This document shows positions 9,723-29,434 of a stretch of 64,000 nt of DNA, in pieces. Source of the stretch: Eledone cirrhosa (taxonomy: Eukaryota). A program made the translations under genes and the position numbers. Location of the stretch: NCBI GenBank assembly GCA_964016885.1, contig OZ024740.1:41478001-41542000 (forward strand), given 5' to 3'. Numbering within the stretch: the first letter of the stretch is position 1; each line of letters begins with the position of its first letter. The notes beneath the pieces were generated by a model. That model saw nothing but the letters and a program-made list of their open reading frames with translations. It had not been told where the DNA came from and did not search any database.

Positions 9723-9725
<3 letters not shown>

Positions 9726-9904
9726 ATAGGAGCCAGTAGGACCCCGACAGCTGAGCTCAAGCCGTTTCGACGAGAATTAGCCGTCGAAACGGCTTGAGCT
9801 CAGCTGTCGGGGTCCTACTGGTTCCTATTATCCACTCTACTACCTCAAGTATTGAGTACTTTGGTGCGTTATGGTCCACCTGGTTCCTTACCACATTTCC
9901 TTCG

Positions 9905-9906
<2 letters not shown>
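9723..9906 (+). mobile_element. Short PLE pLTR-like insertion with a 5' foldback hairpin, copy 1
   Basis: Near-perfect hairpin at 9723-9831, followed by a tail ending ccacatttccttcgt; bounded by (TA)n on both sides. Confidence 0.7.
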
Positions 9907-9940
<34 letters not shown>

Positions 9941-9945
<5 letters not shown>

Positions 9946-10133
9946 AACCAGTAAGACCCCGACGGCTGAGCTCAAGCTGTTTCGACGGCTAATTCTAGTC
10001 CAGAATTAGCCGTCGAAACGGCTTGAGCTCAGCCGTCGGGGTCTTACTCGTTCCTATTACCCACTCTACTACCCTAAGTATTGAGTACTTTGGTGCGTTA
10101 TGGTCTACCTGGTTCCTTACCACATTTCCTTCG

Positions 10134-10134
<1 letters not shown>
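9941..10134 (+). mobile_element. Short PLE pLTR-like insertion with a 5' foldback hairpin, copy 2
   Basis: Same family as 9723-9906; hairpin at 9941-10057; flanked by (TA)n. Confidence 0.7.
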
Positions 10135-10177
<43 letters not shown>

Positions 10178-10386
10178 ATAATAATAAATTTGAAGACTAA
10201 AATCCAAAGAGGGCTCGATAAGGATAAATATATATATCAAATATATAAGAACCGTAGAGCAAATATTTCAGAAGATCCCGTTAAGGGTGAAAGCACCGAT
10301 TCTTTGCTTAAACTCTAATCTGTTATTTTAATATATATATATATATATATAAGAAGAAATTAAAAGATGGTTAAAAAAGTTCTATG

Positions 10387-10457
10387 TATTTTATTATGCA
10401 CATTTCAAAAACAAATATCATCCTGGGACGATATTTGCGTTCTCATCAGATAAAATA
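10387..10457 (-). ncRNA. Minimal type I hammerhead ribozyme
   Basis: Minus strand reads tattttat-CTGATGA-gaacgcaaatatcgtcccaggatgatatttgttttt-GAAA-tgtgca-TA-ataaaata. Stem I is 8 bp, stem II is long, and the cleavage triplet is AUA. Confidence 0.8.
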
Positions 10458-10971
10458 GGGAGACATGATATGATGCTTAAAAAAACACTTGTGAACAGGG
10501 TAGTGTCTAATCAACATATGATAAATAAATTTAAAAGGATATAGAAGATTGGAAAAAAGGGAAAGGAAGGGGAAAAAAAGGAAGGAAGAGGAAGAAAGGA
10601 AAAAAGAAGGAAAGGATAACGGAGGAAGAGTATAAGAAGGAGGGAGGAGAGAGAAAGAGAAAGGAGAGAGAGAGAGAGAGAGAGATAAACATTTAAACTG
10701 AAAAACGCTGTCTCCACTGAAAAATAACTGAAAAAACGGTTGTAAATTTATAAATAAATAAAAAAATAAAAAATTGATGAGGTTTATGATTGATGATGTT
10801 TATGATTACAGATATAGAAATTAAGTATACTATTTATTTAGGGTTTATATACTGAAGGATTTATTAAGATGCGCGAAAAAGTTTTATTAAAATGTATTAT
10901 TAAGATAAAATAAAGTAAAATAAGATAAGGTGAATAAAAAGGGTTTTTTTAAGCACCATATCATGTCTCCC

Positions 10972-11042
10972 TATTTTATCTGATGAGAACGCAAATATCG
11001 TCCCAGGATGATATTTGTTTTAGAAATGCGCATAATAAAATA
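10972..11042 (+). ncRNA. Minimal type I hammerhead ribozyme
   Basis: tattttat-CTGATGA-(stem II gcaaatatcgtcc/ggatgatatttgt)-GAAA-tgcgca-TA-ataaaata. Stem III is palindromic (ATGCGCAT); predicted cut after 11034. Confidence 0.82.
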
Positions 11043-11163
11043 AATGGAACTTTTTTAACCATCTTTTAATTTCTTCTTATATATACTCCAGTCCAATAAA
11101 TTGTTGAGTGCTACTTATCCGATATTTGCATTGCTTTATTGTTCTACTATGAAACTCACCTCC

Positions 11164-11230
<67 letters not shown>

Positions 11231-11417
11231 CATTGGTATAATGTAACGTAGACAAATATTTTCTCCATTCTCTCTCCATTTTTAACCCGTTAGTTCCATT
11301 CATTCATTCACCATTCTCTATCGTATTTCTCTATCGTATTTTCCAAAACAAATCTTGTGCTTGTTAAATTATGCCCCAAATACGGGGATCTTATTTATAA
11401 CATTACCTTCTCGCTAA

Positions 11418-11581
11418 AGAGCTCAAGCCGTTTCAACAGCTATTTCTGGACTTTTGAAACAAACGGCTTGAGCTCTGCCGTCGGAGTCTTGAACGTTTTC
11501 CTATTACCCACTCTACTACCCTAAGTATTGAGTACTCTGGTACGTTATGGTCCACCTGGTTCCTTACCACACTTCCTTCGT
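11418..11581 (+). mobile_element. Short PLE pLTR-like insertion, copy 3 (more diverged)
   Basis: agagctcaagccgttt...aaacggcttgagctct hairpin plus the same tail as copies 1-2, ending in (TA)n. Confidence 0.65.
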
Positions 11582-11943
11582 TATATATATATATATATTG
11601 CCTCTCTGTTCTGTCCCTGTTCAATTTTTCATTATATATATATATATATATATAAAAACAAATAACGAAACGAAATTAAATTTCGTTTCGCTTCTAACTC
11701 ACTTTTGTATGACAGACGCTTAAACAATTAAGTTAAAGTGTACATCTACATATGTATACGGAAGTATTAGTATGCATATAAATACACACATGTATCCATA
11801 TGTACATGTACTGAGTTTTTCACTAGACACTTTACAGTGAGTGTCAGCTAGTCTGTATGTAACCACACAGACGGACCGGGTTTTAGAGTCATACGAGTTT
11901 TCAAGGAAACACATTTCCTCTATTTTCCAGAGGGCCAGACAGG

Positions 11944-11988
11944 AATATTGGACTAGTTTCGATGTTATTACATCTCATCAGCAATATT
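11944..11988 (-). ncRNA. Minimal type I hammerhead ribozyme (469-bp unit 1)
   Basis: Minus strand reads aatattg-CTGATGA-gatgt-aata-acatc-GAAA-cta-GTC-caatatt. All core nucleotides are canonical; stem I 7 bp, stem II 5 bp, palindromic stem III (ACTAGT), GUC cut between 11951 and 11950. Confidence 0.93.
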
Positions 11989-12412
11989 TACCCATCTTCC
12001 GGCTTCTCTGGAGAATTGTAAAAGCACATATCGTTATATGCTTTTTCTATGAAAATTAGTAGTGGGTAGACTAATTTGCATAGAACGTGAGTCATTGTAC
12101 GCACCGGTTCAGCGGAAACGATAAAAACAAATAACGAAACGAAATTAAATTTCGTTTCGCTTCTAACTCACTTTTGTATGACAGACGCTTAAACAATTAA
12201 GTTAAAGTGTACATCTACATATGTATACGGAAGTATTAGTATGCATATAAATACACACATGTATCCATATGTACATGTACTGAGTTTTTCACTAGACACT
12301 TTACAGTGAGTGTCAGCTAGTCTGTATGTAACCACACAGACGGACCGGGTTTTAGAGTCATACGAGTTTTCAAGGAAACACATTTCCTCTATTCTCCAGA
12401 GGGCCAGACAGG

Positions 12413-12457
12413 AATATTGGACTAGTTTCGATGTTATTACATCTCATCAGCAATATT
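12413..12457 (-). ncRNA. Minimal type I hammerhead ribozyme (469-bp unit 2)
   Basis: Identical to 11944-11988. Confidence 0.93.
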
Positions 12458-12881
12458 TACCCATCTTCCGGCTTCTCTGGAGAATTGTAAAAGCACATAT
12501 CGTTATATGCTTTTTCTATGAAAATTAGTAGTGGGTAGACTAATTTGCATAGAACGTGAGTCATTGTACGCACCGGTTCAGCGGAAACGATAAAAACAAA
12601 TAACGAAACGAAATTAAATTTCGTTTCGCTTCTAACTCACTTTTGTATGACAGACGCTTAAACAATTAAGTTAAAGTGTACATCTACATATGTATACGGA
12701 AGTATTAGTATGCATATAAATACACACATGTATCCATATGTACATGTACTGAGTTTTTCACTAGACACTTTACAGTGAGTGTCAGCTAGTCTGTATGTAA
12801 CCACACAGACGGACCGGGTTTTAGAGTCATACGAGTTTTCAAGGAAACACATTTCCTCTATTCTTCAGAGGGCCAGGCAGG

Positions 12882-12919
12882 AATATTGGACTAGTTTCGA
12901 TGTTATTACATCTCATCAG
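12882..12919 (-). ncRNA. Hammerhead of unit 3, lacking the 5' strand of stem I
   Basis: The core is intact, but the array stops exactly at the C of CTGATGA (12919), where an inverted segment begins. Confidence 0.75.
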
Positions 12920-12959
12920 TGGTTACATACAGACTAGCTGACACTCACTGTAAAGTGTC

Positions 12960-14123
12960 AACCTAGTCATGGGATACCTGGAAATCACCCTCTACACTAA
13001 AGTACTAAACAAATTTGGAAACACTCTACACTTACACATAGAAAGGAACTGGAAGCGATATCTAGATGACTGCTTCATCCTTTGGCACGAAAACATCGAG
13101 AAACTTAAAGAATTTCACACACTTATAAATGGGCTCAACACGAATGTTAACTTTACGATGGAATACAGCCATCAACAACTCCCCTTCCTCGACATCCTCA
13201 TTAAGATTCATAACAAAAAAATAGAAACAGACATATAATACAAGCCCACAGACTCCAAGCAACATCTTCCTTTCAACTCTTGCCACCCTAGACACGTTAA
13301 AATTAATATTCCCTACAACTTAGCCAAGAGAATCTGTACTATAGTCTCCAATAAAAACACCTGTTACTTACGGCTACAAGAACTAAAGGACACACTCATA
13401 GGCAGGGACTACCCTGCATCACTAATTGACAATGGAATCCAACGTGCCCTAAAACTCAGTACCCAGGACCTTAGACACCCTAAAGTAAATCAACCGAAAC
13501 TAAAAGCTCTTCCATACATCTCCACACACAACCCCCTCAACAATGAGGCCTTTGACACCATCCTCCAGAACATCCATGTGTTAAAAAAGGACCATAGAAT
13601 GAACCAAATCCTACGAACACACGATATCATAAAGAACAAAAGACAATCTAAGTCAATGAAAAACATCCTAACACATGCCAAAGCACTGCCAACCACAACA
13701 ACGAAACCCACAGTAAAAAATATGCGATAGACCCAACTGTGGCATATGCATCAACCTAATAGAGTGTTCGGAATTCTATTTCAAAGAAGGACAGCGTTTT
13801 ATAGTAAAACACAATTTCACATGCGCATCAGAAAATCTAATATATGTATTAACTTGCTCAGGTTGTCGAGAACAATACATAGGCCAGACCAAGAAAACAG
13901 CCTCCGCCAACGCATGACTGTCCATAGATCCCAAATTAAAATACGGGAATACAGGAAAATACCACTGAGTGAACACATTGATACCTGTGCCGCCCAAAAT
14001 CATCCCAACTTCAGAATCTTTCCCCTCTACAAATTTAAAGACAATGCCACCCACACCCAGCGCATCAGCAAGGAATCTCACTTTATTAACAAATACGGAC
14101 CCCGTCTAAACACTTCTCCCTAA
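12960..14123 (+). pseudogene. PLE reverse transcriptase (C-terminal half) + GIY-YIG endonuclease, with stop and frameshifts
   Basis: NLVMGYLE...WKRYLDDCF...LPFLDI...YKPTDSKQHLPFNSCHP; linker RPNCGIC; NLIYVLTCSGCREQYIGQT; RQRMTVHRSQI...EHI...ESHFINKYGPRLNTSP*. Confidence 0.92.
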
Positions 14124-14594
14124 GACGAACCCACAACATACACACGTCAACATACATACCTACATCAGCATAAATCCTACATACATCTCTATCCACATAT
14201 AAACACAATGACATACGTAAACACACATGTTCTATGGTGCAACACAAATATACACAAATTTGCATACCTTTTGATGTCTATAGATATAAACGTGCCGACA
14301 CACACACATACATATACGCACACATGCATTGCACACTGATGGGCACATACATATTTGTACACAAGTATTCCAATACGGCAAGGCCTAATGGATTCCCCTT
14401 GCAGTACGTACAATCTGGACACTCACACACACCTTGGTCTTATGCCAATACTATATATCATTTCACACTTTTTATTATTAAAGTTTTAGATGTTCTATTG
14501 AGAGAATCGTTTTTACTGAAAATATCGAATAATGTACACCATTTTACCAGTATCACAAAAATACTGGTCCACCCCCCCCCACACACACACACAT

Positions 14595-14625
<31 letters not shown>

Positions 14626-14670
14626 TATATACACACACACATACACACGCGTACATTAACATACAAAGAG

Positions 14671-14702
<32 letters not shown>

Positions 14703-14812
14703 TTCTCCGTATAAGACAAGAGCTGAAAAATATCTTTTAACATGTTAAAATATCCCCCACACACGTACAGACACATTCCTACTGACCGATCCCTCTACCA
14801 CGAATTACTCTG

Positions 14813-14814
<2 letters not shown>

Positions 14815-14898
<84 letters not shown>
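14815..14898. repeat. (CA)n microsatellite
   Basis: Direct read. Confidence 0.95.
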
Positions 14899-14899
<1 letters not shown>

Positions 14900-15240
14900 T
14901 GTCTTAATAGGCATTTGAACTGTCAGCAGGCTGCGGTTCGCACACATCCCTGCTGACCCTTATCACAACAACGAACCCCTTTACTACTACTACACACACA
15001 CACACATATTTGTCTTGAAAGACTTATTTTTCAGTGACTTCTCAATCAGCCGAGACAAACCTACATTTGGCGCAAAATCAATTTTTAACATTCACATGAC
15101 CTCTACCGACCAATCAAAATTGTTTTGACCACAAGAATTTTTTCATACATCTGGAGCCACTTTTTTTTACATAAAACACGTAGAATTTCCAAAACTAATC
15201 AGATTAGAGCAAACATCACGGGCGCTCTATCTCAAAATTA

Positions 15241-15276
15241 TTTTTGAAAAGCATTAGAAATGCGCAACCGGTAAAA
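15241..15276 (+). ncRNA. Decayed minimal hammerhead, probably the pLTR ribozyme of the upstream PLE
   Basis: ttt-TTGAAAA-gcatt-aga-aatgc-GCAA-ccg-GTA-aaa. Geometry, stem II and palindromic stem III are kept, with three core substitutions. Confidence 0.5.
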
Positions 15277-15384
15277 CTTAAAACCAAAACTGAATACTAA
15301 CCAATACTATTACTAACTTTTTCTTATTCCTAATTAAACTATTTTTCACTGGGAACAATTTGTCAGCATTTTCTTTTCTTTTTA

Positions 15385-15421
<37 letters not shown>

Positions 15422-15469
15422 GTTACAAAATAGTTGAATAACTAGGGTTGTTTTCGCAACACGCTAATC

Positions 15470-15885
15470 AATAAACAAGGACACGTTCTCCGCTTCCAGC
15501 TTAGTCGCTTAACCACAAACCTCGGTACTGCGGCCCGCAATGCAGAGGAAAGGAAGACAAACAAATACCGGGGATTGTCCGGCCGCTTCGAGTCCCCAGG
15601 CGTACTTGCCCCTCGTACTGCCGAGCTCCTCCGCAAGATAGGAACGTCAGCTGCCCGTCTGAGGTGGGGTGGCTGTTGCAGCGGGTGTCGCTGGCCATTG
15701 TCTGCGGGAATGCCTTTGCGGCCTGGTCCGCAGGACGCAGCCCCAATACCGCCAAACCCTCTGCCTAGATCCCATCACCCTCCCCCTTCTCTCCCCATTC
15801 TTCTGTGACGCCTGAGCCCTTGTCTTTCCCTCCCTCTTTCGTTTTCATAACCACAAAAGACACTTGAATTTTTCACAATAAAGAT
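15470..15885 (+). mobile_element. 3' fragment of a CRE-clade (restriction-like endonuclease) non-LTR element
   Basis: Broken translation DTFSASSL...GTAARNAEERKTNKY...ESPGVLAPRTAELLRKIG...WLLQRVSLAIVCGNAF matches the CRE C-terminal pattern; aataaa near 15877. Confidence 0.75.
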
Positions 15886-16024
15886 ATATGATGTAATTAG
15901 AATCAAGCACTCAGCGTCATATCTATCCTTCCAATTCCGATGTGGTAGTCTATAACAGGATACAAGAAGTACAACATTTTATGGCAGAAAAATTACAGGA
16001 AATAAAGGGTCAGCACGTAATAAT

Positions 16025-16156
16025 GGATTCTGATTTAGGCAAAAGTCCAACAATTTTAGGGGAGGGGAAATTCAATTTAAATCAACCCCGGTGCTTTAAT
16101 TCATCGATCCCGTAAGGATGAAAGGCAAAGCTAACCTCGGCAGAATTTGAACTCAG
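16025..16156 (-). mobile_element. tRNA-derived SINE fragment
   Basis: Homologous to the copies at 16163, 25296 and 25649 (aaggatgaaaggcaaag...cctcggcagaatttgaactcag). Confidence 0.75.
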
Positions 16157-16162
16157 TTCGAA

Positions 16163-16356
16163 ATAATTGTTTCTACTTTTGGCACAAGGCCAGCAATTAT
16201 CCCAGTTCATTACTGGTCCTTTGTTTTATCGATCCTGTAAGGATGAAAGGTAAAGGTAAAGTTAACCTCGGTGGGATTTGAACTCAGACCGTAAAGGGAC
16301 GTAACTCTATGCTACAAAGCATGGCGTCCGATCCTCTACCGATACTGCCAATCCAC
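16163..16356 (-). mobile_element. tRNA-derived SINE
   Basis: B-box-like GAGTTCAAATCCC on the minus strand; closely matches 25649-25840. Confidence 0.85.
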
Positions 16357-16604
16357 ATAGCCGTTAGTTTGATATAGTGATATGTGAAAATTTGTCATAA
16401 GATAAATTATAGTAAGCTTCCAGTAATCTAGATTATTAGGACTTAGTCAATTTGGATGAATGGCTCAATTATGAGAGGGAATTCTTAGGTGCTTTGACAT
16501 TTAGATATTAAATCAATATACAGTAGGGAGAAAACGTTGAAATTAGTATCGGAAAATAAAGAGGATAAAATATGTATTTGTGCTAATCGCAGGCACGTAC
16601 AAAG

Positions 16605-16795
16605 CTGTCAATAGGCTCCGGCCAGATGTTAAATATAAGTCTCATTTCATCTGGTAATAGGCTCAGGTCAGATGTGAAATATATGCTCCATCTCTACTGG
16701 TACAAGACTCAGACCAGAAGTACAATACATGCGCTATTTCAAGTGTGAAATATGAAATGTAAAGCCAGATGTGAAATGTAAACCCATTTCAATGT
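16605..16795. repeat. Degenerate ~46-bp minisatellite (3-4 units)
   Basis: ctg(t/g)..aataggctc.gg.cagatgt.aaatata...catttc recurs at ~16605, 16651 and 16697. Confidence 0.6.
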
Positions 16796-16954
16796 GTTCA
16801 TTAAGTATTTTTATAATCAGTGCTAAATATTTATGTATTGGTTACGGGTATATACATGTGTATATAGTGTAAATTATGTACTTACAAGTAACAGCAGAAA
16901 GAAGAGTGGATTTATGAAAAAGTTAACCCGTTGTCTTTCATTTACTTTTTAAAA

Positions 16955-17062
16955 GAGGAGAAGAAAGAGGTGAAGGAGGAGGTAGAGGAGGAGGAGAGGA
17001 AGAGGAAGAATAAGAGGAGGAGGAGGAGGAGGAGGAGGAGAAAAAGGATGATGATGATGAGG
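16955..17062. repeat. (GAG)n/(GAT)n purine-rich simple repeat
   Basis: Direct read. Confidence 0.85.
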
Positions 17063-17092
17063 AAACTTGTAGGTCTATGCCAACTGGCTTAA

Positions 17093-17299
17093 CCCTTTAG
17101 CATTTACATTACTCGATATTTACTATTGTATTTTCTCCGGTAAAGGCATTATTTCACATAATATCGAATCTATGATTTTGATGTTATTTATTTTGAGAAG
17201 AATACCTTAACGTCAGTATGAGTGGCCAGTTACAGTCGGTTTGAACAGAAAGAAGTGAGAGAATTCTGGCCGGATATGGCCGGTTTAGATGCTAAAGGG
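17093..17299. mobile_element. TTAA-targeting MITE (piggyBac-type ends)
   Basis: TTAA (17089-92) CCCTTTAGCAT...ATGCTAAAGGG TTAA (17300-03): 11-bp perfect TIRs and a TTAA duplication. Confidence 0.88.
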
Positions 17300-17412
17300 T
17301 TAACAAGCCACTCTGCTCGAGCTAGGTACCTCTATCCTAATATACCAATCTGTGTTTCTAAAACCACATTAATATTATTGTCAGTGTATTTATTGAATAT
17401 TGTCAACAGTGA

Positions 17413-17916
17413 TATATTAATCCTTCTAACACTGATCAACCGCTTAGGTTAAACTACCCTACTCTCACTAACTGCAGAAGTAACTGCAACTGCCGTTACC
17501 CTAATGCATGCCCACTAAATGGACACTGCCTGACACCCAACATAGTCTATAGGTGCACGGTTAAAACTGCTTCGAATACCAGATCCTATATCGGGTCTAC
17601 CTCTAACCCTTTTAAGGTACGCTATAACGCGCACTCTTTTTCCTTCCGAGACCCTAACAACAGATGTTCGACATCTCTAGCTAGGCTCATTAAAAACCTT
17701 AAATTAACCAACATTGAACACTCACTAACATGGGATATCTTAGCTAGGGCCCAACCGTTCAATGGACGAAGAAAATCTTGTGATCTCTGTATTACCGAAG
17801 CATATTACATAACTCTATCACGACCTCTACCGATTAACGATAGAACGGAGGTAACTATTAGCTGTCAACATCGAAGGGCTAATTCCTTCGCCAACAGAAT
17901 ATTTGACCCAACATAG
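17413..17916 (+). pseudogene. PLE C-terminal GIY-YIG endonuclease (Hydra-group-like); absent from the ORF track
   Basis: Manual translation from 17461: NCNCRYPNACPLNGHCLTPNIVYRCTVK...SYIGSTSNPFKVRYNAH...WDILARA...CDLCITEAYYI...INDRTEVTISCQHRR...FDPT*. Confidence 0.88.
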
Positions 17917-18302
17917 TCATCTAGCCCCATTTTTACTTGTAGCTAATAAGTTAAATAGCTATAACTAACTTAGATAATTATAAGTTACCTTACATTACCC
18001 TTACATTGTCTCTCAATTAAAAAATTAAAAAATTAGCACTTAACTATAAACTACCCACAATTTCTAATCTCTCGAGGAGTTACTTCCCCTGAAACCACCC
18101 TCTAATTAGTAAGGTAAATATGTCCATTGGTGGCCATCTTGTTACCCATAGGCAGATCTCACACAATGCAGCCTCGACAGAAGAATACTGCTCGATTATG
18201 GCAGACAATTGATACACCCAGGACACCATAGTGAAATACCAATATATGGAACATTACATTTATGTAACATTCTTTCCTTATTTTAATTTATATTCCTTTG
18301 AA

Positions 18303-18421
18303 GTTCCGATGAGCCGCTCTATCTTTACCTATGTTAATTATTTTCAACTGAACCAGATCAATAATGATATATAGTCATTTGATCCAGAAATATTATATGG
18401 AGTAGCGACACAATTGTAAAC
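18303..18421 (+). ncRNA. Decayed hammerhead with very long stem II, 3' of the 17413 PLE ORF
   Basis: gtt-CCGATGA-gccgctctat...atggagtagc-GACA-caatt-GTA-aac; two core substitutions; palindromic stem III (ACAATTGT); ~130 bp before (TA)n. Confidence 0.6.
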
Positions 18422-18546
18422 GGACATTATTATTATTAATATTATTATTATTACTCTCTACATTCCTTACATCAAACTAAAATATGTTGACAATCTTTTA
18501 ATAATGTCTTCCTTGTGAAATCTGTGGTCTTGTTTTGCTTAACTAA

Positions 18547-18597
<51 letters not shown>

Positions 18598-18600
<3 letters not shown>

Positions 18601-19800
18601 AAAGAAACCAAAGAACGCTTACATACTCAAACAGTTTTTATTTGCTTACAATGTTTCATTCATACCGTTGGGTAGGATTCATCAGAGCTTAATAAACACA
18701 GTGCTGAGTATAAGCTCTACCAAGCTTAGTCACAGGAACAATCGGAATACAATAGAGGGTAAAGATAGGGAGATCGGAGATGACGAATAAGGAGAGAGTA
18801 CATGCTGGGGTTGTTAAGCACCACAGCTAAATGCTAGGGCACAAGCAGATCTCACAAGATGCAGATACAATTGATGGCACACAAAAGCAAAAAATACAAA
18901 CAATGGTTAAAACATAATTAAAAGTAAAAGGAAGATAATATGAAGAGGTAACAAGTAGATAAAAAGGTAAAAAAGTTTAAAAAAAATTTTAAAAGGAAAG
19001 AAGTGAAAAAAAAGAAGAAAAAAGAAAAAAAGAAAGTTTTAAGCACATAAAAAAGCCAGATGAATTTAAGCGCTGGTCCCTATAAAACAAGTGAATAGGA
19101 TCTCCGTAACTTATAGTTATATAAGCACTAATATGCTCTTAAGGTACACCCCAAAAGACCACAGTAATTAAAATCCTCGCCATGGTATACATATACAAGG
19201 TATACTGGTAGGTACTTGAATTACGTAGCTCATGGGTGTTCCACAAGCATATAGACAGGCAACACATAAATGCAAGCCAGACACAAGCGAAGTGGGGTTA
19301 TTACAGGATAGAGCTGAATATAACAAGTATATAGACAGGCACCATAAATAAAGCAAGCTATACACAAGAAAAGCGGGGTTACTATAAGATAGAGCTGCAG
19401 CAAAAGCCCAACAATATTATTTCAGTTACTGTAAAACCAACTTGCAAAGAGTTACTACACATGTATATTAACCGTATAGGCTAGACCAATCGGTTACATA
19501 TGTCCCGATGGTCTAGGGGTTATATAGAAATAGGATTGTCATTAGATAACCAATCAGTCTAAATTATACAACATATGTAGATCGTTCAAAAGTAAAAAAT
19601 AGTTGGATTTATACTATCACTCAAATATAACATCACATCTAGTAACAAGAATTACATGCTGGATATATACATCCAAATTGTCAGGTGCGTCGTACGATAG
19701 ACCATTAAAACCCGGTTACCTAGTGATATGTTAATAAGCCCGATAACTTCACTATTTCTATTATGGGGGAGTGTTCAAACGGGTTGGGTTCAATCAGAAA

Positions 19801-19801
<1 letters not shown>
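18598..19801 (-). mobile_element. Probable non-coding 3' part (pLTR) of a PLE inserted in (TA)n
   Basis: Bounded by (TA)n at 18550-18597 and 19802-19832, with an HHR ~40 nt from its 3' end; no recognisable ORF. Confidence 0.5.
18637..18696 (-). ncRNA. Minimal type I hammerhead ribozyme
   Basis: Minus strand reads tttattaagct-CTGATGA-atcctacc-caac-ggtatgaat-GAAA-catt-GTA-agcaaataaa. The core is intact; stems I and II are imperfect. Confidence 0.75.
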
Positions 19802-19836
<35 letters not shown>

Positions 19837-20325
19837 TTCGGATTACAGAAACCTAGCGGAGATATTATGGATTACATGTGATGTATGTTATATGGTATAT
19901 ATTATATGTATTATGTGTTATGTATGATGTCGACGTGCGGTCCAGGTTAGTCAAATTTTTCCTGAGTTCAGTCTTTTTCGTGGCTATGGTCACTGCGGCC
20001 CTTCTATCGGTCACTGTCTTCATTTTGCAAAGCTGTCTAAAAGTAATGTTATAACTCTAGGGTTATATACCCTATCCGAGTGCTTAGCTGCACACCGAAA
20101 CTGCATTCGTTAGCTTGGCTGCAACCATGGCTTCGTTGATGCTGTACTAAATTTTGTATGTATATATATATATAGAAATATTAAAACGATGAAATTAAAC
20201 ACAAAACTGTTAATTCATAGTAAAACTCATTATTTTACGATCGTTTCTGGGGGGTAGTTCCCTGTATGTTCAGTCAATTATTGATCTATGTAAAACATAT
20301 TACAAAATATCATAGTAAGAAAAAG

Positions 20326-20397
20326 ATACATACGTCTTCACTACCCGCCGTCTTCAGAAATATTTCTGAAGACGGCGGGTAGTGAAGACGTATGTAT
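20326..20397. repeat. Perfect 72-bp palindrome without spacer
   Basis: atacatacgtcttcactacccgccgtcttcagaaat|atttctgaagacggcgggtagtgaagacgtatgtat. Confidence 0.95.
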
Positions 20398-20649
20398 ATA
20401 TGAATATCAAACATAAATTACAAAATAAGGAATTAATGTATAATATTGAGGATTAAATAGTTTGTAAGGCTAAATATAGTTAATGTTTTAATCGGCCGAT
20501 AACTGAACGAAATGAGAGGTTAATGGGAATAATGATTAATGAGCAAGTGTTACTGTGGAGGTGAGATGAGATATATGGCAATATCTTTATAGGAAGATTG
20601 TATTGAAATGATATATTTATACAGAAATAAAGATGGGATCACCATACTC

Positions 20650-21302
20650 TTCCTCCTCCTCACCATCCCCATCATCATTATCATCATCATTATCATCATC
20701 ACGATCATCATTACCACCACCACCACCACCACCACTACCACCACCACCAGCACAACCATCATCACCACCACCACCACCACCACCACCACCACCACAACTA
20801 CCACCACAATACCACCACCACCACCACAACTACCACCATAATACCACCACCACCACCACCACCACCACCACCACAACTACCACCATAATACCACCACCAC
20901 CACCACAACTACCACCATAATACCACCACCACCACCACCACCACCACAACTACCACCACAATACCACCACCACCACCGCCACCACCACCATCCATACCAC
21001 CACCACCACAACCACAACCACCACCATCCACTAACATCACCACACCACCGCTATCACCACCATCACCACCACCACCATCATCATCACCACCACCACCACC
21101 ACCACCACCACCACCATACCACCACCACCATCCATACCACCACCAAACCACAACCACCACAACCACCACAACCACCACCATCCACTAACATCATCACCAC
21201 CACCATCACCACCACCACCACCACCATCACCACCGCCATCACCACCACCAACACCACCACCACCACCACCACCGCCATCACCACCACCATCATCACCACC
21301 AC
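20650..21302. repeat. (CCA)n/(ATC)n imperfect trinucleotide tract
   Basis: Direct read. Confidence 0.95.
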
Positions 21303-22093
21303 AAATTTTACAATTTGGTTTTGTAGATCTAGTAAGTTCTTTAACTTCGGTGGGCAGATTTTTCAAAAGATTCCTGGTTAACTTTTCTAGAGAACTTTCT
21401 CGCATTCGTCGGAGGCGATTCTCAAACTGAGCTCAGGTTGTGTTGTGTGACTCTCTCTATATAAGAGAGATTTGGTTGCGTCTGGGGGAGGGGTGGGGCT
21501 TGTTAATGAGTATAGGAGTGAAGGAGTGTTGATGAAGATTTAAAGGAATTAAAGCATATATATGCACACAAGAGGTGAAAGAAAATAGTGAATGGTAAAA
21601 GCAAGATAATTGATTGAGAATGGAGTTGGGAGGTGTTGGGGTCTTTAAGGAGTGTTTTAAAAAGGGATTGTGAAAGTGCCCTCTTTAAAAAGGGCTTGTG
21701 AAAGACCTGTTGTATTGTAATTATACTTCATTTAGCTCTCATTAAATATTAACCTCATAATATTCAACATTGCATCTCTTCGCTGCAGCTATAGGCATCT
21801 AATATATTATATCATAATTCTTTCTTTTCTATTCTAAGATTGAAACTAATAAGACTGGCATCTTTTGGGATCTGCGTTTGTCTTGTTATTTCTTGAACTA
21901 TATATATGTATATATATATAAATAAATTAATATATATATATATATGTATATATATTAATTAATTTATATATATAAGTGAGCTATAGGGAAACAAAAGAAA
22001 CATAGAACAACTTGTGTATGTGTGTGTATATACATATATATATTATGTATTTATTTATTTAAATATATATACTCGTATGTATAGTATGTTGTA

Positions 22094-25000
22094 TCTATAT
22101 CTATAAAAATGAAAATGTCTGTCTGTCTGTGTGTATGTGTGTCTGTTCCGCAGCAACTTTTGATCCGCAAGGCCGATTTTCAAAATTCTTTTTGTAATCA
22201 ATCAAAAATTCATCAGGGCAGGTCGGCGCGACATTGCGAATGATCGACTCGCCCTTTGTCCAGGTAAAAAAATCGATAAAACTGACTATAGGTACGACTT
22301 TGCACAGAAAAAATCTCTATACCTATAAAAATGAAAAAGAACGAGTGAAAGTGAAAGAAACAGACAGACTAAAAGAGGGGGATAGCGGGAGAGAGAGAGA
22401 GAGAGAGAGCGAGCGACAGACGCTGTGTTTGATACATGACATTGAAAGAGGGGAAGGAAAGCTATAACTAATTAACATGTGTGCGTGTGTGTGTGCGTGC
22501 GTGTGTGTGTGTGTTCGTGAAGCGCTCCAGTAGGAGTTAAATCTATTAACATGCGTGTGTACTTGCACACGTGCGTGCGTGAGTTTGCGTGCGTTTGAGC
22601 GTTTGCGTGTGTGAGTGTGTGTGTGTGTACGTGCGTGTGGCGTTTCACTTACGCCATTTTTTTCAGTGACAGTAGTTGTTGTAGATAATTTATTTATAAC
22701 CTACAACTACTCTATTAAATCAATCAAATATGTCTGCAAGTATATAAATAAGGGCCCGGATGCCGCCATGTTCGGGCTTAAAGAAGAAAACAAACGGGAT
22801 TAAGTTGCACAGTACCAATCAGCACGATATATAAGTACCAGCGAGGCCTTTGGCGAATTTACCGTTTCTCAATGCACAGAAGATACTCTGCCGTCCAACA
22901 CTTTGCTGTGCACCTGGAACACGGCCAAAGAGTGTACTATACAAAACAAACAGCTTTTCTGAGGGCTCTGCAGCCAAGGAACACAACTCTTACTGCATTC
23001 TTTCAACTATGTCAAGGTGACGCATTCGCTCGCACTTTGCTGTATCCCCAAGTCCCCTCTTTCTACAAATGGGAAAAGTATTCATGGAAGCCAAGAATCA
23101 AAGGTGAAAGCGTTGATGGTTATCCAGATTTTAACTTTGACAGCTGCCTGGCGCGAGTTTACACAGTGGGACGAGTTTGGGACGAATGTACCATGGCTTA
23201 TAAAGGAGCTTTGGAGGCACTGGACCGGACTTTAAGAGACATAAGAGACTCCCAGGATCCCATGGGAGGCGTGACCGTCCTTTTATCCGGAGATTTTAGA
23301 CAAACCCTCCCTGTTATTCCCAAAGGAACACGGGCTGATGCTATTCGAGCATGCTTAAAGTCATCTCCGCTTTGGCGTTATGTCACAACATTAACGCTCT
23401 CTACGAACATGAGAGCTCGGATGCTTGGTGACCAAGTGTCATCAGATTTTGCTACCAACCTATTGACACTTGGGAACGGCAAAGTGCCACTTGATGAAGA
23501 GGAAAAAAATCTCCCTCGAACCGGTCTGCACTTTAGTCGACAGTGCTGACGACTTGACAGATGCAGTATTCCCTGAGTTGAGCACTAACTACCAATATCC
23601 AAACTGGCTGTGCGAAAGGGCAATACTGTCTCCGAAAAATGAGACTGTCGACAAAATCAACGGACAACTGCTTAAGTCTCTTCCTACAGCTTCGTGTACA
23701 TACAAGTCCATCGATACAGTCACAGATCCCATTAACTACCCAATTGAGTTTCTTAACTCATTTAACCCTTCCGGGTTGCCATCTTATCGATTGGAACTTA
23801 AGCAAGGATGCCCAATTATGCTTTTGAGGAATCTACACCCACCAAAACTCTGCAACAGCACCCGCCTTACAGTAAATAAACTAACGCAAAACTTGATCGA
23901 GGCGACGATTCTCTCGGGGTGTGGAAAGAGGGAAAAGGTTTTTATCCCAAGGATTCCCCTTTGTCCGTCAACATCAGAGATCCCCTTTTCATTTAGGAGG
24001 CTCCAGTTTCCAGTTCGTTGTAGTTTCGCTATGACGATAAACAAGTCTCAGGAGCAAACATTATCCGTCGCGGGAATAAACCTAGAAGAGCCATGCTTTT
24101 CGCACGGTCAGCTATACGTTGGATGTTCCAGAGTGGGAAGCAAAAGAAACCTTTATGCATTTGCTCCAAACGGTAAAACCACAAACATTGTGTACCAAGA
24201 AGTTCTGTAATCAACACTGCGACACAAACCGTCTTCTAACAATCAAATACCTCGCTGCTTTCAATAATTACCAAATTGTAAACATACTGCCTTTTTGAAA
24301 TTTATAACACCATACTTTTCGACTGTAAACGTTGTGACCACTTTGAGCTGCACGGTATTGAAATGCACGTTCCCCTCTGGTTGGTTGAGCCAGTTTTCCA
24401 TGGATTCGCCAGCGCGTGCAGCAGACGCTGATTCACATGTCCTTGCTGCCGCAGTTGACGCTGTGTTTCGGTTGATACAGTTCAAACAGCAGACGTTGAC
24501 TCACAGTTCTTTGCTGCCGCAGTTGACGCTGTGTTTCGGTTGATGCAGCTCGAGCTGCGGAAGTTGACTCCCATTTCTTTGCTGTCGTAGTTGACGCTTT
24601 GTGTTGAGTAATTTTGAGCGTCCTTCATGTTTAGTCCATGTCACTGCAATCAGTCTAAGGAAAGCAACGTCACAGATTCTATTGGCAGCCACAACTATAC
24701 AGAATGGTAAGCATTTCAAACTACATAAATCATTAGAATGCCTACATATACGCAATGCATAACGAAAAATTTACATGTTTCTACTGTAGCAAACGTATGG
24801 CACCCCCGTCATTTGTACCTTTCACTCAAAGTCGTCATACATTATCTCCGTCATCCCGCAACGACTTCAGTCCTTGAATTGCCAAACATCCTATATTATT
24901 GTCATAAATTCCATGTGACTCACTTTTGGGCTGCTGACTTCCTTGTGGCATAGTTCGCGTTTGGAGCTTCACCGCGTCAACGTCATACTTTTACACCCAT

Positions 25001-25170
25001 TCACCTTTCATATGCCATAACATTTTACCGTTTTTACATCGAACAACACATACTTCTTATGGTTAAAAATAAATGCTTTTTTGGGGTTCATGGTACGTTG
25101 TTTTCTCTTTAAAAAAATTATTTATTAATGGTATAGACTTACACCTGGGCAACGCCGGGTATGGCTGCTA

Positions 25171-25171
<1 letters not shown>
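22094..25171 (+). mobile_element. Internally deleted Helitron with both termini
   Basis: 5' a|TCTATATCTATAAAAATG...(tgtc)n; 3' hairpin cctgggcaacgccggg followed by CTAG|t; inserted between A and T; RepHel remnants inside. Confidence 0.92.
22670..24210 (+). pseudogene. Helitron Rep/PIF1 helicase remnant
   Basis: SIKYVCKYINKG (Rep two-Tyr motif), AVHLEHGQRVYY, WDECTMA, LLSGDFRQTLPV, CPIMLLRNL, QFPVRCSFAMTINKSQ, HGQLYVGCSRV; stops, frameshifts and large deletions. Confidence 0.93.
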
Positions 25172-25211
<40 letters not shown>

Positions 25212-25213
<2 letters not shown>

Positions 25214-25275
25214 AAGGGCGGTGCCCCAGCATGGCCTCAGCCGGATGGCTGAAACAGGTAAAAGAGTAAAAGAGT
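25212..25275 (+). mobile_element. 3' end of a second SINE-like family
   Basis: gggcggtgccccagcatggcc...ctgaaacaggtaaaagagtaaaagagta between TA runs. The tandem tail is seen directly; the family is recalled from octopus repeats. Confidence 0.55.
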
Positions 25276-25295
25276 ATATATATATGTCATTATAT

Positions 25296-25470
25296 ATCGG
25301 TAGAGGGTCGGACGCCATGCTTTGACGCATAGAGTTACGATCCTTGCCATTCTGAGTTCAAATCCCGCCGAGGTTTACTTTGCCTTTCATCCTTACGGGG
25401 TCGATAAAATAAAGTACCAGTAATGCACTGGGTAATTGCTGGCCTTGTGCCAAAAGTAGAAACAATTATA
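25296..25470 (+). mobile_element. tRNA-derived SINE (5'-clipped)
   Basis: ctgagttcaaatcccgccgagg...tgcctttcatccttacggggtcgataaa...ggccttgtgccaaaagtagaaacaattat. Confidence 0.85.
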
Positions 25471-25648
25471 TATACATATTAAAAGAATGACATATATATA
25501 TATACATATATATATACAACAATACTATACATATATATATTTAAATAAATAAATATATAATATATATATGTACACACACATACACACACACACATATATA
25601 TATATAAGAGTATGTATAAGAATGAGGTTTCTCGTGGTTGTTAATGAA

Positions 25649-25840
25649 ATAATTGTTTCTACCTTTGGCACAAGGCCAGCAATTACCCCAGTGCATTACT
25701 GGTACTTTATTTTATCGTCCCCGTAAGGATGAAAGGCAAAGTTAACCTCGACGGGATTTGAACTCAGACCGTAAAGGGACGTAACTATGCTAGAAAAGCA
25801 TGGCGTCCAACCCTCTACCTATACTGCCAATTTACCGCCT
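25649..25840 (-). mobile_element. tRNA-derived SINE, near full length
   Basis: Reverse complement of the 25296 copy; begins ggcggtaaattggcag on the minus strand. Confidence 0.85.
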
Positions 25841-26098
25841 TTAATGTTCTACAACGTTTAGTTTTTGAATCTAGTAAACAGGTGTTGTGATCAAGTTACT
25901 CGCTTTCTAGCGGTCTTCAAACTATTTCTTGGGTTTCTCTCTATCTGATAAAGAGTTGGCATGCGTCAGAAACTTGATGAAAATATCTGATCATTAGATT
26001 TACAACAGTACTATATCATTAAATAATAACAACCTCCAGGAATATCATTCTTATCATTTTCCAAGTATTCTTTACAGTACTAAGCATCTTCTCCATTC

Positions 26099-26164
<66 letters not shown>

Positions 26165-26265
26165 ACACGCACACGCATACACACACACGCACACACACAC
26201 ATATATATATAATAACCTGGCTGGAGCAAAGTAACAAGATTGATTGCATCATATACATATTTTAT

Positions 26266-26339
26266 TCACATATGACACGTGTTTCATTATCGATCAGCTC
26301 AAGGTTCGATCTATAACCGATAGTTCCTTAAATATGTGA
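26266..26339 (-). ncRNA. Decayed minimal hammerhead
   Basis: Minus strand reads tcacatat-TTAAGGA-actatcggtt...gatcgataat-GAAA-cacgt-GTC-atatgtga. Stem I is 8 bp, stem III is palindromic (ACACGTGT), and the CUGAnGA box has two substitutions. Confidence 0.68.
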
Positions 26340-26455
26340 GTCTTTATGTGTAAATACTTATATCTAAATTGGTGCACCACATGTAACTAATGTTACACAC
26401 GTAACAACTATACACACACATACGCACAGATATACAGATATACATACTTATACAT

Positions 26456-26487
<32 letters not shown>

Positions 26488-26488
26488 C

Positions 26489-26545
<57 letters not shown>

Positions 26546-26581
26546 CTCTTTCTCGCTCTCTCTCACACATATATATATATA

Positions 26582-26694
26582 GTGTGTGTGTGTATGTTTG
26601 TAAGCGTGTGTATGTATGTGAGAGAGAGTGTGTGTATATGTGTATATGTGTTGTATGTGTTTAGATATATGTATACACACACACTCACACACAA

Positions 26695-26736
<42 letters not shown>

Positions 26737-26912
26737 TGTGCGTGTGTATGTTTGTATGCGCGCGCGCATGTGAATGTGTGTGTATGCGTGTGTGTGAAGT
26801 GTATGTATACATATGCCTAAACACATACAACACATATACACATATACACACATACATACACTCTCTCTCACATACATACACACACACGCATACAAACATC
26901 CACACACACACA
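26582..26912. repeat. Foldback inverted repeat built from degenerate GT/CA sequence
   Basis: gtgtatatgtgtatatgtgttgtatgtgtttagatatatgtatacac (~26632-26678) is the near reverse complement of gtatgtatacatatgcctaaacacatacaacacatatacacatatacac (~26801-26849); the flanks also pair. Confidence 0.8.
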
Positions 26913-27724
26913 TCCACACACGTGTATGTATACACATGTCTAAACAGCAACATCAACTAATTTATTCATGGGAAACATATAGCAATATTTTTCTGAACAG
27001 GTGTGCACTTACATTAAGTAATTTATCTAACAACTATTTCGCTCACTCCCAAAGGTAATATTATAACATATATGGCGGTTATATCGTGAAATCAATGCAG
27101 CTATCTTAATACATTCAGTGTAAGCTTTTCAATCTTGTCTTCATGTAATACTTTGTACATCAAAATTTACTTTACTTTTAATTATTCTTTTCTTATAAAA
27201 CCAAGAGAAAAACGGGAAGGAGAAAACGAGAAAAGAAAATAGCTTTTCGTATTATCTAATGCATTCTTTGTAATATGAATTAGTATTGACTGTCAACAAT
27301 AATGGCATTCATTCATCTAATGTTTCGTGAATATTTCAATAAATAATGACCTTATAACCTATCGTTTAAAACCTGGAATTTATATCAAAGATATTCGCAA
27401 TAAAAGCTTGACGTGTTGTTACATATGATACGCAACAAGCTAAAGACTTCTGACACTTTAAATAACAATCTCACACTAAAAACTACCCAAAGAATCAAAG
27501 ATATACTAAAATTAGTTTCACTTTTAGTAATCTTCTGCCGACTTGCGTCGTCGTGTCATAAGGTTTGTGTGACATTCAGAGCTAAATAATACCTGGTGTC
27601 TCTACTTCTTACAGAAATACTGTAACCGTTAGTGTTGACATCCTCACCTACCTTGTAACTACTAGCAGCACTAACAAGATACGTTTTGAATTCTCAACCG
27701 TTGTTGCTTGCTTGTAGAAGCCTG

Positions 27725-27910
27725 TAACACACCAATATCAATCGATTAAATTGATTCTATTCTTTACTAGTAGTTTATTTGATTGACCCCAGAGAGATCA
27801 ATGGCAAAGTTGACCATGTTAGGATTTGTATTCAGAATGAACCAGGCCTGGAACTAAATATAACAAAGCATTTCACCAACAACTTTAAAGATTCTACAAA
27901 CACCGACATT
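27725..27910 (-). mobile_element. Old, diverged SINE copy
   Basis: tttatttgattgaccccagagagatcaatggcaaagttgaccatgttaggatttgtattcagaa aligns loosely with the other SINE copies. Confidence 0.6.
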
Positions 27911-28151
27911 TACTACGCTCAAAGCATTATTAAATCTACGATTTATCAATGAGTTAAATCTAGTTATATAATCTTAGGATTCCCTTTTCTTTAGACACAA
28001 GAAACTTTAAATTTATAAAGATATGGTTGGAAATTGTGGCGTGATTTTATTTCTCAAGCGAAGTATTTTATTTCTACTCTGGTTGCCATAGAAATAAATG
28101 GTGATCAATGGAAAGGAAGGTATAAATGCTTTGACCATAGGAAGTGTATTG

Positions 28152-28152
<1 letters not shown>

Positions 28153-28215
<63 letters not shown>

Positions 28216-28216
28216 C

Positions 28217-28258
<42 letters not shown>
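28153..28258. repeat. (CT)n microsatellite
   Basis: Direct read. Confidence 0.95.
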
Positions 28259-28261
<3 letters not shown>

Positions 28262-28510
28262 ATATATATATATATATCACTTATATATTATGAAATACTG
28301 TTGGCTCCTTGCTCACATTAATTTCTATATTTTCATTTATATATATATATATATATATATATACATGAAAAGTGTAAGTTTCTACACAAAACGAAGGTTA
28401 TAGAGAAAATTGAGGTTGGTAATGGCACATGGAATATATAAGAGACAGAATACTTTTTTGTGAAAAAACATAATTTTATAAGGTAAGGAAAGAATAAAGG
28501 GTATAAAAAA

Positions 28511-28552
28511 TGACCGGTTTCGATGGGTCTGCAAAAGCCATCTTTTCAAATG
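28511..28552 (-). ncRNA. Decayed minimal hammerhead
   Basis: Minus strand reads TTGAAAA-gatgg...ccatc-GAAA-ccg-GTC. Stem II and palindromic stem III are kept; the first box and stem I are degraded. Confidence 0.5.
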
Positions 28553-28851
28553 TTGATTAATATTAAGAAAAATTAATAATAAGAAGAGTTAAAATTTGAG
28601 ATTTGAAAATTCAAGTATAAAATTCAGTGTGGGATTTCATAGTAGTTTTCATCTTGGTAGCAGCAAGTTGACTGCTGTGTGTCCCTTTCTGGTAGTGAAT
28701 GAGGAATTATTTGTGGGGAGTGGTTTTTTTTAAAGTCAGATTTAGCAATGGCCAGATGGCCAGCTGCTGGTCAGTGAGGGGGTGGAAGCAATATACATAC
28801 ATATATCTCCATGTGGTCGGTAGGAGAGGGGAGAGTGATATAAAAGGATTT

Positions 28852-28942
<91 letters not shown>

Positions 28943-29434
28943 CATACACGCGCACACTTTCTCCCCACCCCCACACACGTGTGTGTGTATAGTGGGTTGT
29001 GTAGTCGTAACGTGCACAGTTCTGAGCAGTGTCACGTAAGTGAGGAATATAGTAGAAGAGATAGTTGTGAAATAAGAGACGCGAGCTATAGGGAACCGAA
29101 AGAAACATAGAACAAATAAACGATACACAACTTGTTTAAAATGATATACGTTTTCCATTTTATTGTTCGTTTAGCTGAAGTTAGAGATGTAGATAGGTGT
29201 GTGAGAGAGTTATAGTTCGAATAAAAAATTGAATTAAGATTAGAATTAGAATTAGTATTAGTATAATTACGGTGAACGGGTACTGTCTACTGTCTACGGT
29301 CCTTGTTGCTGGGTTAGTATGGCTTACTATGGGTTAGTTGATAGTGAGTGCTTTTGGATCTAAAATCTTTCTTCAGACTCATTGGTTCTTGTCAGGCAAA
29401 TCTATTACTCGTCAGAATACGTGTACAAGTGTTT

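Follow-up and report, generated by a model that had tools for sequence, protein, structure and literature searches.

Hammerhead motifs of several unrelated families beside TA tracts: likely truncated ends of Penelope-like elements and one retrozyme

The 64,000-nucleotide stretch of DNA analysed here (the window) carries, between positions 9723 and 28552, hammerhead motifs that occur above chance and that represent between five and nine unrelated families. The association of these hammerheads with TA tracts is confirmed and is directional, the tracts lying downstream of the cut site. Very probably the motifs are the truncated 3' ends of Penelope-like elements (PLEs), together with one retrozyme, inserted at (TA)n tracts, where PLE-driven insertion is inferred from the anatomy of the elements and from published work. 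The earlier note's assignment of the motifs to the PLE-type minimal hammerhead is supported as to type, but in the best-preserved family, referred to as family B, the hammerhead is a canonical type I ribozyme carried by a retrozyme.

Hammerhead motifs in the window

The number of motifs is not reproduced in shuffled sequence, a comparison by which the earlier note had proposed to judge its ribozymes: a strict hammerhead descriptor returned six matches in 9723-28560, against a mean of 0.27 and a maximum of 2 in 60 block-wise dinucleotide shuffles, and it found no intact-core site in the remainder of the window. Additionally, a scored scan of 9001-31000 gave seven sites scoring at least 28, against none in 40 shuffles, at 10980-11034(+), 10395-10449(-), 11951-11981(-), 12420-12450(-), 26274-26331(-), 28512-28549(-) and 20236-20357(-). 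Of the five intact cores listed previously, those placed at 10387(-), 10972(+), 11944(-) and 12413(-) are among them. Since 10387 and 10972 are the arms of one inverted repeat, and 11944, 12413 and 12882 belong to one tandem array, the seven high-scoring sites represent five insertions. No homology between families was found among the hammerhead elements with blastn, in agreement with the view that several unrelated families are involved.

The type I core (CUGANGA or its U3-A8 variant, with GAAA...UH) is present at 10395, 10980, 11951, 12420, 20236 and 28512, and on inspection at 18647. It is absent from 26274, 18306 and 15244, which have one or two changes each, and family G is without a 5' core. 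Helix III had been described as nearly always a short palindrome; this holds for families A, B, E, F and H (perfect at 10980, 20236, 26274, 28512 and in family B, with a G-U variant at 10395) but not for families C and G. A search with the Rfam hammerhead clan reached no gathering score, the best match being Hammerhead_HH9 at 31.8 bits (gathering 52) on two family B copies, with an E-value of 4.6e-4 at 11951-11981, and no other site was listed. Rfam miRNA matches on hairpins and microsatellites fell below gathering and were discarded, and a hammerhead reading of 10269-10309 was rejected with a score of 14.4, equal to chance.

Association with TA tracts

A (TA)4+ tract lies at most 300 nt downstream of the cut site in all eight of the families tested (45-297 nt), against a baseline of 0.27 (P about 5e-5), which bears out the claim that the hammerheads sit beside (TA)n; for the five families that were identified without regard to TA, the corresponding probability is 0.273^5 = 0.0015. 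The region 9723-28552 has 34 TA tracts, whereas positions 1-9000 have none, and likewise no intact-core site; hammerhead density here follows TA-tract density. Inverted arms are present in families A, B, G and H, and the outer arm ends of A, of the first two G copies (G1 and G2) and of H meet TA.

Families other than B

Family A is an insertion at 10344-11085 with 147-nt arms, 96% complementary, that run outward into TA tracts. Its hammerhead at 10395-10449(-) has an intact core, a long stem II and an AUA site, and is predicted to be occluded by the other arm; that of the second arm, at 10980-11034(+), has a G.A mismatch at the base of stem II and is also predicted to be occluded. Family H (20236-20357(-)) combines an intact core with an 8-nt palindromic helix III and a long loop II of 80 nt, and its 5' half lies within a 72-nt perfect palindrome at 20326-20397, in which it is predicted to be locked. 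This site was absent from the earlier list.

Family F (28512-28549(-)), previously read at 28511 as decayed, instead has the published U3-A8 core variant and a good stem II, with a weak stem I. The decayed status of the site noted at 26266 stands, family E (26274-26331(-)) having two core changes in otherwise well-preserved stems, including an 8-bp stem I. Conversely, the site reported as intact at 18637(-), family C (18647-18685(-), approximately 49 nt before (TA)24), cannot be so described: the catalytic bases are kept, but stem II is bulged and mismatched, helix III is an odd 7-nt helix, and the site failed both scans. The hammerheads listed as decayed at 15241 and 18303 resemble the core with one or two changes, but score at chance level. 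The first (15244-15273(+)) is a candidate decayed hammerhead with a U3-A8 core and one change in GAAA, 115 nt before (TA)15. The second, family D (18306-18418(+)), has two core changes and is probably a decayed hammerhead in the 3' end of a PLE of Hydra type; it is the only one directly behind a PLE open reading frame.

Three half-hammerheads had been claimed near 9780, 10010 and 11460. GAAA, a 6-bp helix III and GUC are indeed found, but helix III is not a short palindrome, and the three are copies of one family, G, 83-88% alike. Copy 1 (9723-9905(+)) is an element end, 5'-truncated and inverted head to head, that lies between two (TA)n tracts and has only a motif resembling the hammerhead 3' half; copy 2 (9941-10134(+)) has another inversion point and GAAA, helix III and GUC without a 5' core; and copy 3 (11419-11581(+)) is more decayed. 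The GAAA of family G is predicted to fold as a stem-loop, and the motif could be a plain hairpin. An exact-pattern scan for family G in metagenome contigs gave no matches, and its parent was not found.

Penelope-like open reading frames

Two PLE remains bear linker motifs tied to (TA)n targeting. The first, a 5'-truncated element at 12960-14123(+), has the end of the reverse transcriptase (RT), a CX4CxxC linker and GIY-YIG. This is the Neptune/Nematis order of RT, CX2-5CxxC linker and C-terminal GIY-YIG, the clade being called by motif only. It contains one stop and two frame breaks, and its 3' UTR continues past 14570; no hammerhead was firmly found for it. The second, at 17413-17916(+), is a GIY-YIG end with a CxCX5C linker followed by CxxC and CxH, of Hydra type by motif; RT is missing, and (TA)24 lies at 18550. 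It was assigned to an Atlas GIY-YIG cluster at 0.95, the family being carried by 59% of members, and 17413-17913 had no homologues among longer proteins at E 0.001. A Pfam scan of four PLE fragments and of the fragments at 29.4 kb returned no family. RT and/or GIY-YIG Pfam domains occur in most of the 41 homologues.

Predicted folding and activity

In equilibrium folding, the sites at 10395(-), 10980(+) and 20236(-) would each require 50-90 kcal/mol to form the ribozyme, being sequestered by their own inverted arms, and family C is not predicted to be occluded. Family A alone is predicted to form stem I with a probability of 0.82-0.84, but not with the inverted arm present; in families H and F stem I is not predicted to form even alone. 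Of the six ribozymes with intact cores, three are thus predicted to be locked, each by the inverted arm of its own element; a capacity to cut RNA is predicted only for the two whole minus-strand ribozymes of family B. On the plus strand there is no whole-core site other than 10980(+), itself predicted to be occluded. Since three intact cores are predicted to be locked and the plus strand offers no usable ribozyme, the suggestion in the earlier note that read-through RNA could be fragmented on both strands is unsupported. Among published PLE minimal hammerheads, activity is absent in monomers and low in dimers, and one requires the protein of its element.

Family B, a probable retrozyme

Family B occupies 11652-12919(-) as 2.7 copies of a 469-bp unit with 37% GC, in which the units are 99% alike and three differ at only 3 positions. 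Its 3' end abuts a (TA)n tract at 11633-11654. The hammerhead at 11951-11981(-) is a canonical type I ribozyme with a 7-bp stem I, a 5-bp stem II, a palindromic helix III and GUC, and that at 12420-12450(-) is identical to it. The third, at 12889-12919(-), which had been recorded at 12882(-) as truncated, is so indeed, the 5' strand of stem I having been replaced at an inversion; a 41-nt inverted arm follows at 12919-12959(+) and runs straight into the PLE fragment at its 5' end. No open reading frame of at least 90 amino acids is listed in 11652-12919. The hammerhead is predicted to fold in context (probability 0.86 for stem I and 1.0 for stem II), with the double hammerhead 5.8 and the monomer 14.8 kcal/mol above the minimum free energy (MFE), and the predicted circle has an MFE of -152.2, against -94.4 +/- 5.1 in 60 shuffles (z -11.3), with 68% paired. 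Family B thus has the features of a non-LTR retrozyme, namely tandem whole type I hammerheads, no coding capacity, low GC and a self-paired predicted circle, and it appears young, is predicted to be well folded and has a fixed TA-abutting end.

The tandem joint (12919 to 12451) was found in three of the four public runs examined (X1, X4 and X21; 237 + 1 reads from 31 starts in X21) and also under a second organism label. Of 19 public runs listed with matching sequence, none of them RNA, 13 had a share of 0.2 or less. Since X21 is a RAD-seq library with read ends piled at fixed places, its depth was not taken as copy number; by rough estimate from public runs, family B and the PLE each appear in thousands of copies. 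Twelve contigs of run X1 exit the unit at 12590 into (TA)n, in the register of the end of this copy. An exact-pattern scan for family B gave no matches in metagenome contigs and none in viral contigs.

A more speculative and not very likely reading is that family B is a high-copy cephalopod retrozyme bearing the footprints of its driver, whereby a TA-targeting PLE enzyme would prime at a fixed internal site 297 nt past the cut, would circle the 469-nt RNA more than twice and, here, would have switched template to a Neptune-type RNA. If true, this would tie a retrozyme directly to the PLE that mobilises it, a connection for which the arguments to date have come solely from co-occurrence and pLTR phylogeny.

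The array might instead have arisen when one PLE terminal repeat was duplicated locally in tandem, that is, by satellite birth and not by copying of circular or multimeric RNA. This origin is doubtful. Such a route is proposed by Li et al. 2026 (10.64898/2026.07.22.740005); the near identity of the three units would fit it, as would a unit just above the 150-450 bp given by Cervera and de la Pena 2020 (PMC7229834). However, the joint recurs in other runs and under the second organism label, the unit is predicted to fold as a highly paired circle, the array starts at a TA tract in a register common to other copies and ends in an inversion, and no homology was found between family B and the adjacent PLE 3' region.

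It is rather unlikely that family B and the Neptune-type fragment were inserted together in one template-switching event, with this PLE as the driver of the retrozyme. The inverted arm of family B meets the PLE truncation point without a TA remnant, unlike the outer arm ends of A, G1, G2 and H, and no PLE 5' remainder lies to the left of family B, both of which speak for such an event. The two nevertheless share no sequence, and the PLE copy looks the older: set against the 3 positions that differ between family B units, it has the stop, both frame breaks and six near-fixed differences that fall on the first or second position of a codon, among 16 taken from the 40 listed of 165 entries.

Origin of the hammerhead-rich region

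In the favoured explanation, the GIY-YIG endonuclease of a PLE would nick a TA tract, and reverse transcription would begin shortly downstream of the hammerhead and in most cases end prematurely, so that the hammerhead end would be retained more often than any other part, in many cases as an inverted pair arranged head to head. Hammerhead density would then mirror target density. Most copies would be dead: some are half-motifs, some are mutated, and others are predicted to be sequestered by an antisense arm of their own. A tandem transcript of family B would fold the double hammerhead and release the 469-nt unit, which would probably circularise. Families A, C, E, F, G and H are likely PLE ends, so called by anatomy only, no full-length parent having been seen.

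A true ribozyme hotspot far above the genome background, cutting read-through RNA on both strands and perhaps kept for that purpose, is very improbable. With five insertions that bear high-scoring sites, these 19 kb are more densely populated than published genome totals for other animals imply (Xenopus tropicalis has about 9,000 minimal hammerheads and Acropora over 6,000 hammerheads), and the rest of the window has no intact-core site. The flanks, however, are two L1/Tx1-like copies without TA tracts, plus satellites. Confinement of all five insertions to 18.8 of 31.8 kb has a P of 0.07 with bounds set post hoc (0.003 if the count takes in the weak sites as well, for 11 candidate insertions altogether). 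By the rough estimate noted above, family B and the PLE are each abundant, and the state of the ribozymes speaks against a hotspot of this kind too, with cores decaying in C, D and E, three predicted occluded and none usable on the plus strand. That repeat DNA rich in AT and in hairpins produced the motifs by chance is scarcely credible, already refuted for families A, B, E, F and H and tenable at most for weak sites: a relaxed descriptor gave 18 matches against 13.8 expected from 25 shuffles, a count at chance that was dropped as evidence, and 15244 and 18306 score 20.4 and 19.2, where 0.7-1.7 chance matches are expected per 22 kb, but the strict and scored scans exceed their shuffles and the TA association is directional.

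These families add to a described class, and they illustrate how tandem and inverted copies inflate the number of hammerheads counted in such regions. The models suggest, moreover, that a ribozyme carried by a PLE insertion would be silenced where the insertion has its typical inverted arms. With its fixed TA-abutting end, family B makes the mode of insertion of animal retrozymes testable.

Comparison with known systems

A search of open-licence main texts found no paper on hammerheads of cephalopods and none on retrozymes that target TA. The metazoan PLE minimal hammerheads of Cervera and De la Pena 2014 (PMC4209133) share with those described here the type I topology, a helix III that is palindromic, pairing on opposite strands at distances of 100-700 bp, long stem II (A, E and H) and U3-A8 core variant (F), and they too occur as many dissimilar families per genome, mostly as single motifs from truncated elements. 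They differ in that the helix III palindromes here are 6-8 nt, loop II of family H is 80 nt and helix III of family G is 6 bp, and in that A, C, E, F, G and H are tied to no parent element.

Inverted arms have been described for PLEs, and the EN+ PLEs of Craig et al. 2021 (PMC8557442), which include the Neptune/Nematis and Hydra clades, have (TA)n targets, 5' truncation and inverted 5' copies, as seen here, with the CX2-5CxxC (12960-14123) and CxCX5C (17413-17916) linkers before GIY-YIG. Unlike those elements, only broken fragments are present in the window, with the clade called by motif.

Finally, the metazoan non-LTR retrozymes of PMC7229834 and 10.64898/2026.07.22.740005 resemble family B in their non-coding tandem unit with GC below 45%, in the presence of a canonical type I hammerhead in each of two successive units and in the highly paired predicted circle. 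At 469 bp the unit is at the long end, above the former range and within the 51-972 bp of the latter. Relative to the retrozymes described in the consulted parts of these papers, family B is distinguished by its fixed TA-abutting start 297 nt past the cut site and by its 5' inversion.

Hammerhead motifs and their number

The hammerhead motifs in the window are real and of known kinds. A strict descriptor, which required a C3-G8 or U3-A8 core, a self-complementary helix III and both stem I and stem II, returned six sites in 9723-28560 versus a mean of 0.27 over 60 shuffles, and no site elsewhere in the window. A scored scan of 9001-31000 returned seven sites scoring at least 28, namely 10395(-), 10980(+), 11951(-), 12420(-), 20236(-), 26274(-) and 28512(-), versus none in 40 shuffles. 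Most of the intact cores listed in an earlier note were recovered, but its calls at 15241 and 18303 (here 15244 and 18306) score 20.4 and 19.2, values at which 0.7-1.7 matches are expected by chance, and that at 18637 (here 18647) retains the catalytic bases, but its stem II is damaged and its helix III is both odd and damaged. Relaxing the descriptor to two core changes gave 18 matches versus 13.8 in shuffles, and decayed calls therefore need further support. At 28512 the core is of the U3-A8 variant that Cervera and De la Pena describe (PMC4209133). An intact-core hammerhead absent from the earlier list lies at 20236-20397, with a loop II of 80 nt and its 5' half within a 72-nt perfect palindrome. 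Rfam returned only two Hammerhead_HH9 matches, both below threshold and both in family B, a retrozyme at 11652-12919(-). A short element at 10248-10330 ends in (TA)n; around the 5' core it matches family H (20236-20357(-)) at 14 of 15 nt, and its hammerhead score is at chance level.

The seven strong sites represent five insertions. Sites 10395 and 10980 are the two arms of a single inverted repeat (147 nt); 11951, 12420 and a truncated site at 12889 belong to a single 469-bp unit repeated 2.7 times, with three positions differing. Three half-sites form a single family, G (9723-9905, 9941-10134 and 11419-11581), in which the inversion point differs per copy and the 5' core is absent from all three copies; it may be a simple hairpin. 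Weak sites included, there are at most nine families. The earlier claim of many unrelated families was inflated in its count, but at blastn sensitivity the hammerhead families are unrelated, no match having been obtained between any two of them. They are probably undescribed members, because the main text of the O. vulgaris repeat annotation, as far as available, does not mention ribozymes, and our literature search on cephalopod hammerheads found no paper.

Association with TA tracts

In all eight families tested, a (TA)4+ tract lies no more than 300 nt downstream of the cut site, at a median distance of 80 nt; the same holds for 27% of oriented positions drawn at random (P about 5e-5). The earlier choice of sites may favour TA neighbours, and the five blind-scan families alone give P 0.0015, in agreement with the proposed siting beside (TA)n. 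The inverted arms of family A (10344-11085), the first two G copies and H also reach TA at their outer ends; those of B and the third G copy do not. TA tracts number 34 inside the hammerhead interval (9723-28552) and none in 1-9000, and within the window the motifs track their TA targets. That five insertions should all fall within 18.8 of 31.8 kb has a P of 0.07, with bounds set post hoc. Local hammerhead density exceeds that implied by published totals for other animals, and a TA-rich, insertion-rich patch is therefore plausible; no special mechanism is required.

Repeat-dense animal DNA makes up the first 31.7 kb of the window. After it, 31767-64000 consists of a (GTG)n stretch of 5 kb, a (TC)n stretch of 0.7 kb and, from 38583 to the window end, more than 1,300 copies of a 19-bp satellite. 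Positions 1-8990 hold a head-to-tail pair of L1/Tx1-like non-LTR copies that are 75-84% alike; the first retains an ORF1 remnant and has a terminal (TATC)n. Among the matches listed for the ORF, two of three named relatives are cephalopods (Argonauta, Acanthosepion) and the third bears a bacterial label. At 9051-9448, 222 nt are flanked by 88-nt inverted arms (77%) adjoining CA/TA repeats, a MITE-like arrangement or one more head-to-head element end. A short SINE-like repeat recurs (16080-16345, 25295-25460, 25640-25830), with two copies inverted (100 nt, 91%), and a Helitron-like PIF1 helicase fragment (Pfam PIF1 and Pif1_2B) at 22782-24210 is accompanied by a 68-bp tandem repeat at 24419-24602.

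Penelope-like remains

The Penelope-like element (PLE) fragment at 12960-14123(+) encodes RT and GIY-YIG domains with a CX4CxxC linker; it is 5'-truncated, has one stop and two frame breaks, and its 3' region extends beyond 14570. Its two named relatives are from Octopus bimaculoides and an oyster. A second fragment, at 17413-17916(+), keeps a GIY-YIG end together with its CxCX5C linker. Craig et al. (PMC8557442) connect such linkers with Neptune/Nematis and Hydra elements and with (TA)n insertion. The usual PLE form is described as having inverted ends placed head to head, with palindromes at the junctions (PMC3846280). Frangieh et al. describe AT-rich DNA nicked on both strands, reverse transcription starting internally and a hammerhead dependent on the element's own protein. 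The absence of a linked ORF for six hammerhead families counts against reading these as PLE ends. A broken GIY-YIG-like coding remnant at 29060-29900(-) is by eye a Penelope-like end. After it comes a hammerhead-like stretch near 29350-29385, heavily decayed, and 33 nt of the remnant's tail recur at 21978-22010.

Predicted cleavage competence

Equilibrium folding predicts that three of the six intact-core sites (10395, 10980 and 20236) are locked by their own inverted arm, opening of which would cost 50-90 kcal/mol; for all three, transcription would reach the antisense arm before the ribozyme. Stem I of 28512 is predicted not to form, and by the same equilibrium predictions only the two family B copies, both on the minus strand, would be competent. 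Helix III cannot be shared across families because the palindromes differ, and for published PLE minimal hammerheads the monomer is reported inactive and dimer activity low (PMC4209133). Taken together, these points make the proposed fragmentation of read-through RNA on both strands unlikely. Near-perfect long inverted repeats occur at 9723-10056, 10344-11085 and 20326-20397; if transcribed, they would give double-stranded RNA, possibly a substrate for editing or small-RNA pathways.

Family B as a retrozyme

The family B hammerhead is of canonical size and is predicted to fold in all contexts tested (P 0.86 for stem I and 1.0 for stem II). For two units, the double hammerhead is predicted to lie 5.8 kcal/mol above the MFE, compared with 14.8 kcal/mol for a pair of monomers in which helix III is closed. 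Folded as a circle, the unit has a predicted z of -11.3. The tandem joint is present in three of four public runs compared. In one of these, X1, at least 12 contigs among the loose ends listed pass from family B into (TA)n at 12590, in register with the end of the window copy at 11652. Summed depth in X1, which is not a copy number, is about 61,000 beside the family B hammerhead and about 25,000-100,000 at most listed places in the PLE ORF, compared with 6-23 on most single contigs; read from this depth, both likely have thousands of copies.

Family B could have been amplified locally. Family B and the PLE fragment may also be a single chimeric insertion arising by template switch, as B's inverted arm meets the Neptune-type PLE 5' truncation point with no TA remnant (12919-12960); however, on the 40 of 165 difference rows listed, the PLE copy appears older than family B. 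Li et al. 2026 (10.64898/2026.07.22.740005) give a working definition for active non-LTR retrozymes, and family B falls within it; they nevertheless report cleavage in only one of nine dimers so defined. Family B is also consistent with the retrozymes described by Cervera 2020 (PMC7229834).
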